Assembly: GCA_964588705.1 (NCBI GenBank)
Contig: CAZPQV010000003.1
Location: 12,926-76,925 of the forward strand
From: an uncultured Chryseobacterium sp.
Lineage (GTDB): Bacteria > Bacteroidota > Bacteroidia > Flavobacteriales > Weeksellaceae
Direction: 5' to 3'
Length of the DNA: 64,000 nucleotides
Below are positions 4,683-63,701 of this stretch, piece by piece. The notes under the pieces were generated by a model. It was not told the origin of the DNA. It did no database searches and saw only the letters and a program-made list of their open reading frames with translations. Every line of letters begins with the position of its first letter. Positions within the stretch are counted from its first letter, which is position 1. The position numbers and the translations under genes were made by a program.

Positions 4683-4751
4683 GAAGTCGCGGAGCGACGA
4701 ATATTGGTAGAAAATGTAATGAGAAAAAATGCGAAGCGCCAGAGGCGCGAC
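4683..4751. repeat. REP-like hairpins, left flank of RAYT
   Basis: GTCGC-GGA-GCGAC and GCGCC-AGA-GGCGC, each a 5-bp GC stem with a 3-nt loop. Confidence 0.75.
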
Positions 4752-4768
4752 TTATTGGTTCAGAAAAA

Positions 4769-5236
4769 TTATCGTAATTCTTTAAAAATAAATTTTTCAT
4801 CAAAATCTATTTCAAATGCTTTTAAAAAATCAATATATTCTGATTTAAATGATTTCTTTTGGTGATGCTTTTCCTGATTATTGATATATTTTACTACTGA
4901 ATCAATTTGTGATTTGCTATAAGAAAATGCTCCAAAACTGTCCTGCCATTCAAATCTCGAAGATGTAAAACCTTTTTCATTAATCCATCTTGAAGAATTG
5001 CTTTTGATATCTTTTACTAAATCTGACAGTGATTGAGTCGGTCGCATTCCTATAAGTATATGGATATGATCGGGCATTCCGTTAATTGCAAGAAGTTTAT
5101 GTTTCTTGTTTTGGATTATAGCTGTAATATATTTATACAACTCATCTCTCCATTCAGATTTGATTTGTGAATCTCTGAATTTCACAGCAAAAACAATTTG
5201 GATATGTAATTGTGTATAGGTATTATTTTCAGCCAC
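4769..5236 (-). CDS. REP-associated tyrosine transposase (RAYT; IS200/IS605 TnpA-like Y1 HUH enzyme)
   Basis: 155 aa with GTG start. HUH motif in PDHIHILIG and catalytic Tyr region KYINNQEKHH (Y-x3-Q-x2-HH type). Flanked by inverted GC-rich hairpin repeats. Confidence 0.85.
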   Translation of the reverse strand: MAENNTYTQLHIQIVFAVKFRDSQIKSEWRDELYKYITAIIQNKKHKLLAINGMPDHIHILIGMRPTQSLSDLVKDIKSNSSRWINEKGFTSSRFEWQDSFGAFSYSKSQIDSVVKYINNQEKHHQKKSFKSEYIDFLKAFEIDFDEKFIFKELR

Positions 5237-5294
5237 GAATTTTGGATTTGAGATAAAGATAAGGAAATGAAAACCAAATGATTTTAATCAAGAT

Positions 5295-5363
5295 GTCGCG
5301 CCTCTGGCGCTTCACAATTATAACAACTTGTTTGCTACCGATATTGCGTCGCTCTATGACTAC
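5295..5363. repeat. REP-like hairpins, right flank of RAYT (inverted copies)
   Basis: GCGCC-TCT-GGCGC hairpin plus a degenerate copy of the outer hairpin. Confidence 0.75.
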
Positions 5364-7595: not shown

Positions 7596-8312
7596 ATGGA
7601 AAAACTCAATTTACTTTTTACAAAAGACGGCCTGCAATATCAGATTACACGCAACAGAAGTATTCTGGAAGAAAACGCTTTTTTTGAAAATGAGGAAACT
7701 CCTACAAACTTTGTTTCAGATAGATTGGACGAAATTCTAACAAAACAATTCGCAGAGATTTCTGTTTTTTCGGCATTGAATCATTTTGCAATGATGCCTG
7801 AAGGTTTTGCAGAACACGATTTGGGTTATGACCTTATTGCATACAACGCTCCGGTAAATAAAGAAATTGAGGAACTCATGCTTTCGGTAAATAAGAAGTT
7901 TGGCGTGCAGTTTTATTATACTTTTCCGAAGGACATCTATCAAAAAATTAAAGCAAAAAATCTTCCGGCAAAGTTCAATTTTTCTGGAGAGAAATTTCTG
8001 AATTCCATCAATGCAAAAGGAGGTAAGGAAATTCACGTGAACCTTTATCATAATCAGTGTGAATTTTTTGCTTTTGAAAATAAAAAAATAGTCCTTTACA
8101 ATAATCTGGATGTAAATTCGGAAGTAGATTTTCTATATTTCGTGATGTTTACCTTAAGCAAAATCGGTTTCGGAATTAACGAAACGAATTTTTATGTGTA
8201 CGGCGAAACCTCTGAAAATGAGACTTTTATTTCTGAACTGAGAAAATTTGTGAAGAATCTGAAAATTGTGTTCGATAATATTCCGGGAAAGAATTTTATT
8301 CTTGTTGGATGA
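7596..8312 (+). CDS. conserved Bacteroidota hypothetical protein (DUF3822-like, assignment tentative)
   Basis: About 238 aa from the ATG at 7596. Sits upstream of rsmD, as I recall for DUF3822 genes in Bacteroidota. No motif-level proof. Confidence 0.55.
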   Translation: MEKLNLLFTKDGLQYQITRNRSILEENAFFENEETPTNFVSDRLDEILTKQFAEISVFSALNHFAMMPEGFAEHDLGYDLIAYNAPVNKEIEELMLSVNKKFGVQFYYTFPKDIYQKIKAKNLPAKFNFSGEKFLNSINAKGGKEIHVNLYHNQCEFFAFENKKIVLYNNLDVNSEVDFLYFVMFTLSKIGFGINETNFYVYGETSENETFISELRKFVKNLKIVFDNIPGKNFILVG

Positions 8313-8338
8313 TGGATGTTGGATGCTCGATGACGTTT
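8304..8338. repeat. phased heptamer array, G-TGGAT class (left arm of an inverted pair)
   Basis: GTTGGAT GATGGAT GTTGGAT GCTCGAT GACGTTT. Overlaps the stop codon of the upstream gene. Confidence 0.8.
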
Positions 8339-8397
8339 TCAAAGGCAATTCACATTCATTTCATAATTCTTAATTTTAAATTCCAAATCTTTTTAAC

Positions 8398-8751
8398 ATG
8401 AGTTTTAAGTTTGAAAAATTATTTATTTGGCAGGACTCAATGGAATTTGCTGAAAAGATTTATGAAATCTCAAAATCATTTCCAAAGGAAGAAACCTATA
8501 ATTTGACATCTCAAATCAGACGAGCTGCAGATTCTATCGCATTAAATACTTCTGAAGGGAGTATTTTGCAAAGTAATCCTGAATTCAGACGATTTCTTAG
8601 TTTTTCTATAAGATCAATTGCGGAAGTTGTTACGTGCTTATATAAAGCTAAAAACCGAAATTATATTTCAAATGAAGATTTCTCATTGAACTATGCTTTT
8701 TGCTACAAATTAATGAATCATATAATCGCCTTCAGAAATAAACTAGACTGA
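8398..8751 (+). CDS. four helix bundle protein (23S rRNA IVS protein / Avd-like family)
   Basis: 117 aa. N-terminus FEKLFIWQDSMEFAEKIYEISKSFPKEETYNLTSQIRRAADSIALNTSEG is typical of this family. Confidence 0.8.
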   Translation: MSFKFEKLFIWQDSMEFAEKIYEISKSFPKEETYNLTSQIRRAADSIALNTSEGSILQSNPEFRRFLSFSIRSIAEVVTCLYKAKNRNYISNEDFSLNYAFCYKLMNHIIAFRNKLD

Positions 8752-8754
8752 TTG

Positions 8755-8789
8755 AAACATCCCGCACCCATCACCTAACACCCAACAAA
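8755..8789. repeat. phased heptamer array, NNNCACC class (right arm of an inverted pair)
   Basis: AAACATC CCGCACC CATCACC TAACACC CAACAAA. The reverse complement of 8758-8786 matches 8304-8332 at 21/29 without gaps. Confidence 0.8.
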
Positions 8790-8792
8790 AAT

Positions 8793-9380
8793 ATGTTTAG
8801 AATTATAAGTGGTAAATGGAAAGCAAAAAAAATTGCTGCCCCAAAAAATTTCGACGTTAGACCTACGACTGATTTTGCAAAAGAAGCACTGTTCAGCATT
8901 ATTGAGCACCGGTACGATATGGAATTTATTTCTGTATTGGACTTGTTTGCCGGAATTGGTTCCATCACTTTAGAGTTTGCATCGCGCGATTGCCCTGACA
9001 TTACTTCAGTTGAAATGAATCCGAAACATTGCAGTTTTATCAATTCCACTGCTGCGGAATTGGACATGTCAATGCAGATTAATGTTCAAAGAGCCGACGT
9101 TTATGATTGGTTGAAGAAAAACAGAAACAAAAAACAATACGACATTGTTTTTGCAGATGCACCGTTTGAGTCCACCGATGAAAAGAAATATCACGAGCTG
9201 ATTTCTTTAGTTCTGAACAATAATTACGTGAAGGAAAACGGGGTTTTCATTATGGAACATCAGAGCCGACTGAAATTTCAGCATCCTCACCTTCTCGAAA
9301 CCAGAAAATATGGCAACGTGAGTTTCTCCTTTTTCAGAAAAGATGAAGAGGAAGTAGAAAGTATTGAAGAGCAGGCTTAA
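8793..9380 (+). CDS. rsmD: 16S rRNA (guanine966-N2)-methyltransferase RsmD
   Basis: MFRIISGKWKAKKI, RPTTDFAKEALFSII, SAM-binding VLDLFAGIGS, and the catalytic-loop equivalent FADAPF. Confidence 0.88.
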   Translation: MFRIISGKWKAKKIAAPKNFDVRPTTDFAKEALFSIIEHRYDMEFISVLDLFAGIGSITLEFASRDCPDITSVEMNPKHCSFINSTAAELDMSMQINVQRADVYDWLKKNRNKKQYDIVFADAPFESTDEKKYHELISLVLNNNYVKENGVFIMEHQSRLKFQHPHLLETRKYGNVSFSFFRKDEEEVESIEEQA

Positions 9381-10273: not shown

Positions 10274-11398
10274 TTATAAAATAAATAAATCCGAAGCGAT
10301 TCCATCAGCCAGAAACCAGTGTTTTTCAGGAATTTTCAGGTAATTATTTTCAATAATCAGAAATCCTTCCGACAGTTTTGATGCTGTTTCTTTATTATAA
10401 TGCTCCAATATTTCTTCTGAAAAATTTTCTTTCAGTTTATTTAAATCAACACCCCAAATGGTGCGCAGACCAATCATCAGCATTTCGTTGAAACGGTCTT
10501 TTTCACTTAGAATTTCGGTCTCTTTTGGAAGTTTATTTTCGGCAAGATTCTTAATGTATATGGTGTTATTGGCGATATTCCAACTTCGTTCATTTAGTCC
10601 GTTGTAGGAGTGTGCCGAAGGTCCAATTCCCAGATATTCCTGATATTTCCAATACGCGGAATTGTGCTTGGACTCAAAACCCGGTTTTGCAAAATTTGAG
10701 ATTTCATAATGCAGAAAACCGTGATATTTCAGAAAATCAGACATATAATAAAACTCCTTATTCTGCTCTGCCTCTTTCGGTGGCTGAATTTTATTTTTTT
10801 TAATCCAGTCGCTTAAAGCTGTTTTTGGCTCAACGGTTAACGCATAGGACGATACGTGTGGAACTTCAAGCTCAACAGTTTTATTTAAATTCTCTTTCCA
10901 AATATTGACATCTGAAGTTGGTGAACCATAAATTAGATCGATACTGATATTTTCAAACCCAAAATCCTGCGAACGTTTAATGGAACTTTCTGCTTCCGAG
11001 GCGTTGTGAGCGCGGTTCATCAGTTCTAAATCTTCATCAAAAAAACTCTGTGTTCCAATGGAAAGACGATTGATTTCTGTTTTAGATAACTCTTTCAGAA
11101 AGGCTCCGTTCAAATCATCGGGATTGGATTCTAAAGTGATTTCAATTTTTTCATCAAAATCAAAATATTTCAGGGTTTCATCAATCAGAGATTTTATTTC
11201 ATCAACAGTTAATACTGAGGGTGTTCCTCCTCCGAAATAAAGGGACTTAAGGGTTTTATTTTCCAGTTCGTTTTTACGCAGAAAAATCTCTTTTTTAATC
11301 GCCGAAACCATTTCATCTTTCAACTTAAAAGAAGTCGAAAAATGAAAATTACAGTAACTGCATTTCTGTTTGCAAAAAGGAATATGGATGTAAATCAT
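10274..11398 (-). CDS. hemW: radical SAM heme chaperone HemW (oxygen-independent coproporphyrinogen oxidase-like)
   Basis: Start set at the ATG giving MIYIHIPFCKQKCSYCNF (CxxxCxxC radical SAM cluster). The longer track ORF would run through a heptamer array and overlap the upstream gene. Confidence 0.88.
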   Translation of the reverse strand: MIYIHIPFCKQKCSYCNFHFSTSFKLKDEMVSAIKKEIFLRKNELENKTLKSLYFGGGTPSVLTVDEIKSLIDETLKYFDFDEKIEITLESNPDDLNGAFLKELSKTEINRLSIGTQSFFDEDLELMNRAHNASEAESSIKRSQDFGFENISIDLIYGSPTSDVNIWKENLNKTVELEVPHVSSYALTVEPKTALSDWIKKNKIQPPKEAEQNKEFYYMSDFLKYHGFLHYEISNFAKPGFESKHNSAYWKYQEYLGIGPSAHSYNGLNERSWNIANNTIYIKNLAENKLPKETEILSEKDRFNEMLMIGLRTIWGVDLNKLKENFSEEILEHYNKETASKLSEGFLIIENNYLKIPEKHWFLADGIASDLFIL

Positions 11399-11400
11399 TC

Positions 11401-11449
11401 GAGATTCGAGATTCGAGATTCGAGATTCAGGATACGAGTTTCGAGTTTT
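11401..11449. repeat. phased heptamer array, GAGATTC class
   Basis: GAGATTC x4, AGGATAC, GAGTTTC, GAGTTTT. Fills the gap between the PorP/SprF stop and the hemW start. Confidence 0.9.
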
Positions 11450-17885: not shown

Positions 17886-17913
17886 TAGGAAGAGGGAAGC
17901 AGGAAGCGCGAAG
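17886..17913. repeat. phased heptamer array, NNNGAAG class
   Basis: TAGGAAG AGGGAAG CAGGAAG CGCGAAG. Confidence 0.8.
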
Positions 17914-38639: not shown

Positions 38640-38674
38640 GGTGAAGCGCGAAGTTGGAAGATGGAAGCCCGAAG
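38640..38674. repeat. phased heptamer array, NNNGAAG class
   Basis: GGTGAAG CGCGAAG TTGGAAG ATGGAAG CCCGAAG, upstream of queD. Confidence 0.85.
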
Positions 38675-57626: not shown

Positions 57627-57654
57627 ATGGAAGTTCGAAGCTCGAAGCACGGAG
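57627..57654. repeat. phased heptamer array, NNNGAAG class
   Basis: ATGGAAG TTCGAAG CTCGAAG CACGGAG, starting right after the fdhD stop. Confidence 0.8.
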
Positions 57655-63582: not shown

Positions 63583-63631
63583 TATTCAACTTCGTGCTTC
63601 GTACTCCGTGCTTCCATCTTCTCGCTTCCCG
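63576..63631. repeat. phased heptamer array, CTTCNNN class (8 units)
   Basis: CTTCGGA TATTCAA CTTCGTG CTTCGTA CTCCGTG CTTCCAT CTTCTCG CTTCCCG. Confidence 0.9.
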
Positions 63632-63644
63632 CAAAATAAAATCA

Positions 63645-63673
63645 CTGATTTTCAGAACCCTCTTTTCTTCGGA
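63645..63673 (+). repeat. direct repeat copy 2 (29 bp) preceding a CTTC array
   Basis: CTGATTTTCAGAACCCTCTTTTCTTCGGA, offset 91 bp from copy 1. Confidence 0.85.
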
Positions 63674-63701
63674 CTTCGGACTCCCGTCTTCCAACTTTTC
63701 A
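63667..63701. repeat. phased heptamer array, CTTCNNN class (5 units)
   Basis: CTTCGGA CTTCGGA CTCCCGT CTTCCAA CTTTTCA. Confidence 0.85.

Follow-up and report, generated by a model that had tools for sequence, protein, structure and literature searches.

The window analysed here is a 64,000-nt stretch of one contig from an uncultured Chryseobacterium sp. Within it, a short gene for a four-helix-bundle protein of the PF05635 (TIGR02436) family lies between two co-oriented genes, one for a DUF3822 protein and one for an RsmD-type 16S rRNA methyltransferase, and is enclosed by two inverted arrays of heptamer units that form the arms of a cassette. The PF05635 family was first found inside intervening sequences (IVSs) of rRNA. 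The enclosure is real and non-random, and the locus is an IVS-type cassette in an mRNA operon, for which we infer a mechanism based on pairing of the two arms in the transcript. The parts of the locus are as follows.

7596–8312, + strand: DUF3822 gene, the upstream host (PF12864, E 1.5e-18)
8304–8332, + strand: left (5′) arm, G-rich, with the units GTTGGAT, GATGGAT, GTTGGAT, and GCTCGAT plus a terminal G (repeat search)
8333–8397, + strand: AT-rich leader of 65 nt, from the left arm to the ATG
8398–8751, + strand: four-helix-bundle gene, 117 aa (PF05635 / TIGR02436, profile matches)
8758–8786, + strand: right (3′) arm, C-rich, with the units CATCCCG, CACCCAT, CACCTAA, and CACCCAA plus a terminal C (repeat search)
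8793–9380, + strand: rsmD-type 16S rRNA methyltransferase gene, the downstream host (PF03602, E 2.1e-37)

Re-reading of the sequences confirms the claim of a preliminary description of this DNA that the left arm (8304–8332, GTTGGATGATGGATGTTGGATGCTCGATG) and the reverse complement of 8758–8786 (GTTGGGTGTTAGGTGATGGGTGCGGGATG) align without gaps at 21 of 29 positions; a repeat search lengthens the arms to 36 nt (8297–8332 and 8758–8793, 75% complementary). Both arms comprise four heptamers, those of the right arm reading GTTGGGT, GTTAGGT, GATGGGT, and GCGGGAT plus G when reverse-complemented, and the pattern SGRWG is found three times in the left arm. As also described previously, the arms bracket a sole open reading frame (ORF), that of the 117-aa protein, and profile searches give PF05635 for its product and DUF3822 and RsmD for those of its neighbours (RsmD scores 111.5 bits on TIGR00095, slightly below the cut-off of 117.5). 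The overlap of the left arm with the upstream stop is likewise borne out: the DUF3822 stop (TGA, 8310–8312) is inside the arm, and the last two codons and stop of that gene (GTT GGA TGA) come from the first units of the array. The DUF3822 product is 238 aa, as called in other assemblies, and in relatives without an array its C-terminus reads ...NFIL-x-stop. The right arm begins 6 nt past the four-helix-bundle stop and ends, in agreement with the earlier account, 6 nt ahead of the rsmD ATG (8793). In the cassette region, including the leader, there are no promoter- or terminator-like sites beyond chance, and no Rfam family matches.

Local alignment of the two flanks gives a score of 28, a value reached by 0.16% of 4,956 random flank pairs taken from the same genome with the same geometry. 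The identity between the arms (72%) is not above that between neighbouring units inside one arm (~71–81%), and because of this the ‘inverted repeat’ is a pair of oppositely oriented arrays of one heptamer family, and not a position-specific palindrome.

The 117-aa protein scores 108.2 bits on PF05635 (curated cut-off 33.8) and 104.7 bits on TIGR02436 (cut-off 24), and has the family motif RxxxSxxxNxxE at residues 42–53 (RAADSIALNTSE); it also matches the longer form GxxRxxxSxxxNxxE given in PMC3936711, with the leading G replaced by S. The nearest solved structure, by sequence similarity only, is PDB 2GSC (XCC0516; E 5.4e-18), from which a homopentameric ring is predicted for the protein; the fold of the family is described as a homopentamer (Lin et al., as cited in PMC4990558). 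Between species in which the junction is filled, synonymous sites are saturated (synonymous divergence, dS, >1.3 or undefined), and nonsynonymous divergence (dN) of the four-helix-bundle gene is 0.16–0.21 in most pairs (0.18–0.21 from the window gene to its orthologues, and 0.04 in the closest pair), similar to that of DUF3822 and rsmD (0.13–0.25); therefore, the protein is under purifying selection. Despite the saturated dS, the arms retain the period of 7, the GGRTG core, and the mirror symmetry across the filled species, none of which would have survived so long in neutral sequence.

The same build recurs around the other PF05635 genes of the source genome (2.5 Mb, 37.7% GC). The preliminary description had proposed to inspect the flanks of the paralogues, and all seven PF05635 genes, the one in the window included, proved to lie between co-oriented protein genes and to have short tandem units arrayed in inverted orientation on their two sides. 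The sequence of the unit differs from copy to copy (for example, GTTTCAA/TTGAAAC, GTTTGAT, CGAAGAC/TCTTCGG, GGTGCAG/CTGCACC, and GTGAAT), and no copy has flanks that rank below the top 2.4% of random pairs. The suggestion that TGA-containing units provide stops in all three frames is true for the window copy; other unit types are stop-free, so this is not a general property. Codon 14 is an in-frame TAG in the paralogue closest to the window gene (L005, G000:C13:2150-2464; 58% identity), the CGAAGAC arms of which are nevertheless well formed; the gene has either become a pseudogene recently or is read through.

Beyond this genome, inverted arrays with a flank score of at least 24 were found at 51 of 77 scorable loci of close homologues (proteins 59–76% identical to the window protein, from several Bacteroidota orders), compared with 0.8% of displaced controls. 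Of 27 loci of diverse family members from related genera, 18 are armed, with other unit types; together, 69 of 104 relatives are armed, vs. <1% of controls. Of 168 flank segments, 75 have 7 or 14 as their main period, as do two control segments, and the mode of arm length is 4–5 units. The arms have a pronounced polarity that is the same on either strand: G exceeds C in the 5′ arm at 68 of 71 loci (p = 5e-17), and C exceeds G in the 3′ arm at 70 of 72. The upstream neighbour is co-oriented at 50 of 53 scored loci, and the median distance is 7 nt from the upstream stop to the start of the arms and 14 nt from their end to the next ATG. Across 55 loci, identity is 0.84 between arms in the best register, 0.81 within arms, and 0.78 after a shift of one or two units. 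The more alike two proteins are, the more alike are their arms (Mantel test; 0 of 2000 permutations reach the observed value), and the subfamily of the window protein has GGAWG, GGGTG, or CGAAG-type units wherever it is found. The type of arm unit thus goes with the protein subfamily, even between orders.

Of the 16 related genera in the first survey, 13 have DUF3822 and rsmD side by side with 5–84 nt between them, an arrangement that the preliminary description had called usual in Bacteroidota; none of the 16 has a four-helix-bundle gene at this junction. The inserted segment includes both arms, which supports the earlier view of the locus as a cassette and shows that the ORF and its two arms went in as a single unit where one co-oriented gene stops and the next starts. 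The source genome is the only one of its genus in the collection, and the comparison was made across the wider family. The same cassette is present at the same junction in L038–L041 (three Kaistella and one metagenome-assembled genome labelled Chryseobacterium aquaticum), and the junction is also filled in L160 and in seven of the 20 species of genus g53. Filled junctions are dispersed over the RsmD tree, with differences between close sisters. The preliminary description had asked whether an empty site carries a single array; instead, there are four kinds of empty site, namely clean, with both arrays and no ORF, with a C-rich remnant only, and with another gene without arrays.

These states form a graded series. 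In L203, the sister of filled L201, both arms remain and the ORF is reduced to its final codons (MNHIIAFRNK), L161 has kept both arms and part of the leader, and L188, the sister of filled L192, has about one unit left per side. ORF-less junctions with heptamer hairpins of other unit types occur in many species of genus g47 and in L197 and L202, and clean junctions in the same bacterial family have gaps of 11–17 nt. The median inverted-repeat score is 27 at filled junctions and 14, equal to background, at ORF-less ones, and the fresh deletion derivatives L203 and L161 still score 22–25. This shows that the arms stay after deletion of the ORF and then lose their complementarity. At the same junction and without arms, L182 (gap 452 nt) has a GNAT-like ORF, identified by eye, and L021 (gap 606 nt) a lipoprotein-like ORF. 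Tandem forms were observed in L201 and L192 (genus g53), in which the left arm and a first C-rich array are followed by the full ORF and a second C-rich array; in L201, a C-terminal ORF fragment lies between the left arm and the first C-rich array. These look like the result of unequal recombination between arrays, or like a decayed first cassette.

Within the species, all 12 contigs that encode an identical RsmD or four-helix-bundle protein and span the junction carry the cassette. Only 10 of 580 columns are variable, and there is no change in unit number and no compensatory pair among the same-species contigs. Because every sampled same-species assembly covering the junction carries the cassette, this copy is regarded as old and fixed. 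At the genus level, RsmD and the four-helix-bundle protein diverge at equal rates. Relatives of the four-helix-bundle protein in Bacteroidales, Cytophagales, and Chitinophagales are 61–69% identical, whereas RsmD is 40–47% identical between families of the same order; because of this difference in sequence identity, the cassette family probably also moves horizontally.

Heptamer arrays are also common outside the cassettes. The source genome has 43 strict period-7 arrays, vs. one in locally shuffled sequence, and 57 SGRWG-type arrays, which far exceed the arms of its seven PF05635 genes. Most of the arrays are in short spacers between co-oriented genes, where they are either G-rich and just past a stop or C-rich and just before a start, and those without a gene occur solo or as hairpins; inside the gene-less hairpins of this genome, no four-helix-bundle remnants were found, C152 and C146 containing PDDEXK_3 in their place. 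A genome-level link between the subfamily of the window protein and SGRWG arrays was not found either, the abundance of the arrays being lineage-specific: G010 has 146 SGRWG pattern matches and no subfamily member (best match 36%), and G004 has a 72% homologue and zero pattern matches.

The closest known thing to the cassette is the ORF-bearing 23S rRNA IVS of Coxiella and Leptospira. The IVS of Coxiella burnetii has an S23p (PF05635) ORF and termini that form a 28-bp stem, with two to three tandem GACAGAT heptamers in the 5′ arm, the number of which varies between strains; an RNase III cut in the stem has been mapped by rapid amplification of cDNA ends (PMC4990558). The cassette shares with such IVSs the PF05635 ORF, a length of ~430–480 nt, complementary termini able to form a stem of ~28 bp, and tandem heptamers, as well as a sporadic distribution, proposed to be horizontal, and an ORF that sometimes decays (PMC4990558; Ralph and McClelland, 1993, as cited there). 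In contrast to the rRNA IVSs, which are located in helix 25 or 45, the cassette lies between protein genes of an operon, and insertion into an rRNA hairpin loop applies to none of the seven copies, all of which are between protein genes. Furthermore, the protein is under clear purifying selection here and decaying in Coxiella, and cutting by RNase III is demonstrated for the Coxiella IVS, whereas for the cassette it is predicted by analogy.

Our preferred reading, to which we assign a probability of about 0.5, is that the cassette is an old, vertically inherited element, the operon counterpart of the ORF-bearing 23S rRNA IVS, the arms of which pair and loop out the ORF. Having no promoter of its own, the cassette would be transcribed together with DUF3822 and rsmD; in this transcript, the G-rich 5′ array would pair in any register with the C-rich 3′ array to give a stem of ~28 bp. 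By looping out the ORF, the stem would bring the DUF3822 stop to ~10 nt from the rsmD start, and the operon would tolerate the insert thanks to the looped-out ORF. The stem is a putative substrate of RNase III, by analogy with the homologous Coxiella element, and the protein would have a selected function of its own, probably related to nucleic acids and possibly to the arrays themselves. RNA folding of 8290–8800, a check proposed in the preliminary description, gives paired arms in both the minimum-energy and the centroid structures (z = -2.3). The energy of the arm duplex is ~ -30 kcal/mol (arms of 29–36 nt), and the genome encodes an RNase III (174.6 bits, cut-off 166.25).

A number of results weigh against this reading, with regard both to pairing in the sense RNA and to movement of the cassette. 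Among arm mismatches there is no excess of those compatible with G·U pairing on the sense strand (42 vs. 57), and three of the eight mismatches in the window copy are A·C in sense RNA; the antisense strand folds at least equally well (z = -2.8); and register-specific (compensatory) complementarity was not found, a unique register being present at one of 55 loci. Mirrored arrays of one unit explain the complementarity without selection for pairing, and the strict polarity, with the G-rich array 5′, is not predicted by the thermodynamics of a hairpin. Neither recent movement nor a new polymorphic insertion was seen among the sampled strains of the species, no target-site duplication was seen by eye at the boundaries in comparison with clean junctions, and there is no transposase in the cassette (a genome-wide transposase search was not made). 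Of the ‘small mobile or duplicated cassette’ suggested in the preliminary description, the cassette is retained; no movement, enzyme, or target duplication was seen, and the copy is old and fixed. A transposon or miniature inverted-repeat transposable element with shared terminal inverted repeats was also considered and rejected, the arms differing among the seven copies. Given the missing G·U excess, the antisense fold, the register independence, and the polarity, two rivals, a protein–repeat system and recombination at the DNA level, therefore stay alive.

In the first of these, which we regard as unlikely, the heptamers are the cognate RNA or DNA sites of the pentameric protein, used for instance in autoregulation or maintenance, and the complementarity is a by-product of mirrored sites. 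Such a system fits the independence of complementarity from register and the decay of both arrays and complementarity after loss of the ORF. It also fits a unit type that follows the protein subfamily, across orders too, a link for which, however, co-inheritance alone accounts. The most common arm length of 4–5 units would suit a homopentameric fold (PDB 2GSC; Lin et al., as cited in PMC4990558), and the G-rich-first polarity points to strand-specific reading. On the other hand, the abundance of units does not follow the subfamily gene across genomes (G010 and G004), this genome has 57 SGRWG arrays for just two subfamily genes, of which one contains an in-frame TAG, and unrelated cargo (PDDEXK_3 and DUF559) also lies between similar inverted arrays.

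Slightly less likely again is a DNA-level element, in which the arrays are recombination handles or the hairpin ends of single-stranded DNA. The ORF would then enter existing junction hairpins by recombination between arrays or via an enzyme encoded elsewhere, as in repetitive extragenic palindromic (REP) sequences with their REP-associated tyrosine transposases (RAYTs) or in IS200/IS605. The many ORF-less hairpins and solo arrays of the same unit types at co-oriented junctions in this genome are consistent with this, as are the differences between genera in the unit type of the hairpin at the same junction, the resemblance of the L201 and L192 tandems to unequal recombination between arrays, and the lack of a sense-strand wobble bias among mismatches. 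However, no enzyme, target duplication, or polymorphic new insertion was found (with the limit on the transposase search given above), the ORF-less hairpins of this genome lack four-helix-bundle remnants, and a loop of ~425 nt makes a DNA cruciform unlikely. Moreover, the only nearby Y1 transposase (window 4769–5236) has REP-like flanks of its own that are unrelated to the arms. REP units are palindromes recognised by a Y1 transposase. The cassette is like REP/RAYT systems and REPINs in having short intergenic repeats in inverted pairs and a small gene inside its own repeats, and unlike them in that its arms are tandem arrays that differ between copies and its protein is a helical bundle without a known catalytic motif. 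The REP/RAYT-like unit in the window (4727–5319), a few kb from the cassette, comprises a Y1 transposase ORF of the IS200/RAYT type (4769–5236, - strand; PF01797, E 1.2e-18) and flanking 34-nt inverted repeats (4727–4760 and 5286–5319, 85% complementary) with the palindrome GCGCCAGAGGCGC.

A third alternative, that the arrays are signals of the host operon (for translational coupling, mRNA stability, or G-quadruplex formation, roles that have been suggested for intergenic heptamer repeats) and the gene is a passenger in the loop, appears improbable. Intergenic heptamer repeats have been described as GGGAATC in Xanthomonas and GGGGAYT in Nostoc, with convergent pairs and a preference for four units (PMC4692102), and as TAACTGA repeats in Beggiatoaceae, Cyanobacteria, and some Bacteroidetes (PMC4679880). 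The arrays around the cassette are like these in their period of 7, four-unit preference, location between co-oriented ORFs, G-rich arrays past a stop and C-rich arrays before a start, convergent inverted pairs, and repeat length that changes between relatives. Both position and polarity therefore fit a host signal (PMC4692102; PMC4679880), as does the conservation of an ORF-less hairpin at this very junction over many species of genus g47. Nevertheless, the unit type goes with the ORF and not with the host junction, the arms are within the inserted segment, and clean junctions of 11–17 nt function without arms. As for G-quadruplexes, the four GGG tracts that characterise the repeats of PMC4692102 are absent, the units here being GGAT/GGGT with at most scattered GGG; with GG rather than GGG here and units such as GTTTCAA in the paralogues, G-quadruplexes are not general. 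The proposal that the arms derive from a pre-existing host hairpin at each site was rejected as a general rule, as the unit type follows the protein subfamily across orders. Neither PMC4692102 nor PMC4679880 mentions a four-helix-bundle gene under the terms ‘S23’ and ‘intervening’ (or, in PMC4679880 only, ‘four helix’).

Chance proximity of two ordinary low-complexity arrays to an ordinary small gene can be dismissed: heptamer arrays are common in the genome and a match of 21 of 29 is expected from two arrays of one core, but mirrored arrays occur at 7 of 7 paralogues and 69 of 104 relatives vs. <1% of controls, with a polarity of p = 5e-17. Consequently, the caution in the preliminary description that the arm match might be no better than that of two arrays with a similar core is upheld for the level of the match and not for the mirror orientation exactly around the gene, which is non-random, and none of the three observations named there as able to refute the finding (the same gene order without arrays, unflanked paralogues, or a chance-level match) removes it.

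Already in print are PF05635 ORFs in stem-bounded, heptamer-bearing rRNA IVSs, intergenic heptamer arrays of the polarity seen here, and PF05635 genes in operons. Our literature search did not find a rule that non-rRNA PF05635 genes are enclosed by inverted heptamer arrays, a series from filled through deleted to decayed sites connecting gene-less hairpins with PF05635 cassettes, or any paper linking PF05635 genes outside rRNA to flanking heptamer arrays. What the locus adds is the IVS build outside rRNA, a protein that is clearly selected, and a graded series of sites in one bacterial family, and with it a link between the uncharacterised PF05635 protein family and the unexplained 7-base repeats between bacterial genes. 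For annotation, short ‘hypothetical’ inserts that split operons become recognisable as cassettes, and heptamer hairpins without a gene as what may be left of them.

More speculatively, and in our view doubtful at present, the four-helix-bundle genes and the intergenic heptamer arrays may be one system, with array-guided movement of the ORF and a protein that reads the unit. The first half of this argument is made because one junction shows the filled state, the ORF deleted with the arms in place, a decayed hairpin, and the clean state. If so, gene-less hairpins and solo arrays at operon junctions here and in Xanthomonas, cyanobacteria, and Beggiatoaceae would be cassette fossils and perhaps sites where the cassettes land. 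Recombination guided by the arrays would carry the ORF from one array hairpin to another, the 7-nt unit would be recognised by the pentameric protein, and rRNA IVSs would be the copies that ended up in rRNA helices. Three decades-old puzzles, namely the nature of rRNA IVSs, the role of the very widespread PF05635 proteins, and the 7-nt repeats between co-oriented genes, might then be aspects of one element, and these questions become testable by ordinary genetics in culturable Flavobacteriia.

Two other settings of related proteins may be compared. A PF05635 gene wedged between cmr3 and cmr2 of a cas operon was read by the authors as CRISPR-associated; it is like the window gene in its placement within an operon and in its RxxxSxxxNxxE motif, and flanking repeats are unmentioned in the relevant passages of that paper (PMC3936711). 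The Avd proteins of diversity-generating retroelements have a related four-helix-bundle pentamer fold; the window protein scores 17.9 bits on the bAvd profile (cut-off 40), and no reverse-transcriptase Pfam domain is present among the called neighbour genes, with template and variable repeats not looked for. The called neighbours are Metallophos_2, Smr, DUF6370, DUF3822, RsmD, Asp_Glu_race, HemN-like, and PorP_SprF.

Inverted arrays were also observed around other genes. At G000:C9:21138-21595, inverted arrays of 8-nt units (TTTCCCCC / GGGGGAAA) lie on either side of a DUF559 endonuclease domain (PF04480, E 2.2e-32), which is seemingly in frame inside a leucyl-tRNA synthetase gene (…FTTRPDTIFGATF directly after). 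PDDEXK_3 (GxxExxY) cassettes in inverted arrays of ~9-nt units (CGCGGATTT / CACAGATTTT) are found at G000:C146:1281-1759, with a PF13366 match, and at G000:C152:600-1025, read by eye only; both PDDEXK_3 ORFs look disrupted. PDDEXK_3 is thus a second family of cargo flanked in this way.

Arrays without cargo include a giant tandem array of >200 nt in G010, a genome of a related genus (G010:C1:169966-170173), composed of GGATGAT, GGGTGAT, and GGAAGAT units. In the window, five GAGATTC units (GAATCTC on the sense strand) form a solo array at 11394–11433 that abuts the ATG of the HemN-like radical-SAM gene (- strand), with no inverted partner within 1.2 kb. Gene-less SGRWG-type arrays are located in window spacers at 17888–17913, 38649–38674, 57629–57654, and 63590–63692, the last of which consists of two C-rich arrays, each after a repeated module of ~30 nt (…TTTTMAGAACCCTCTTTTCTTCGGA), upstream of an rpmB-like gene.

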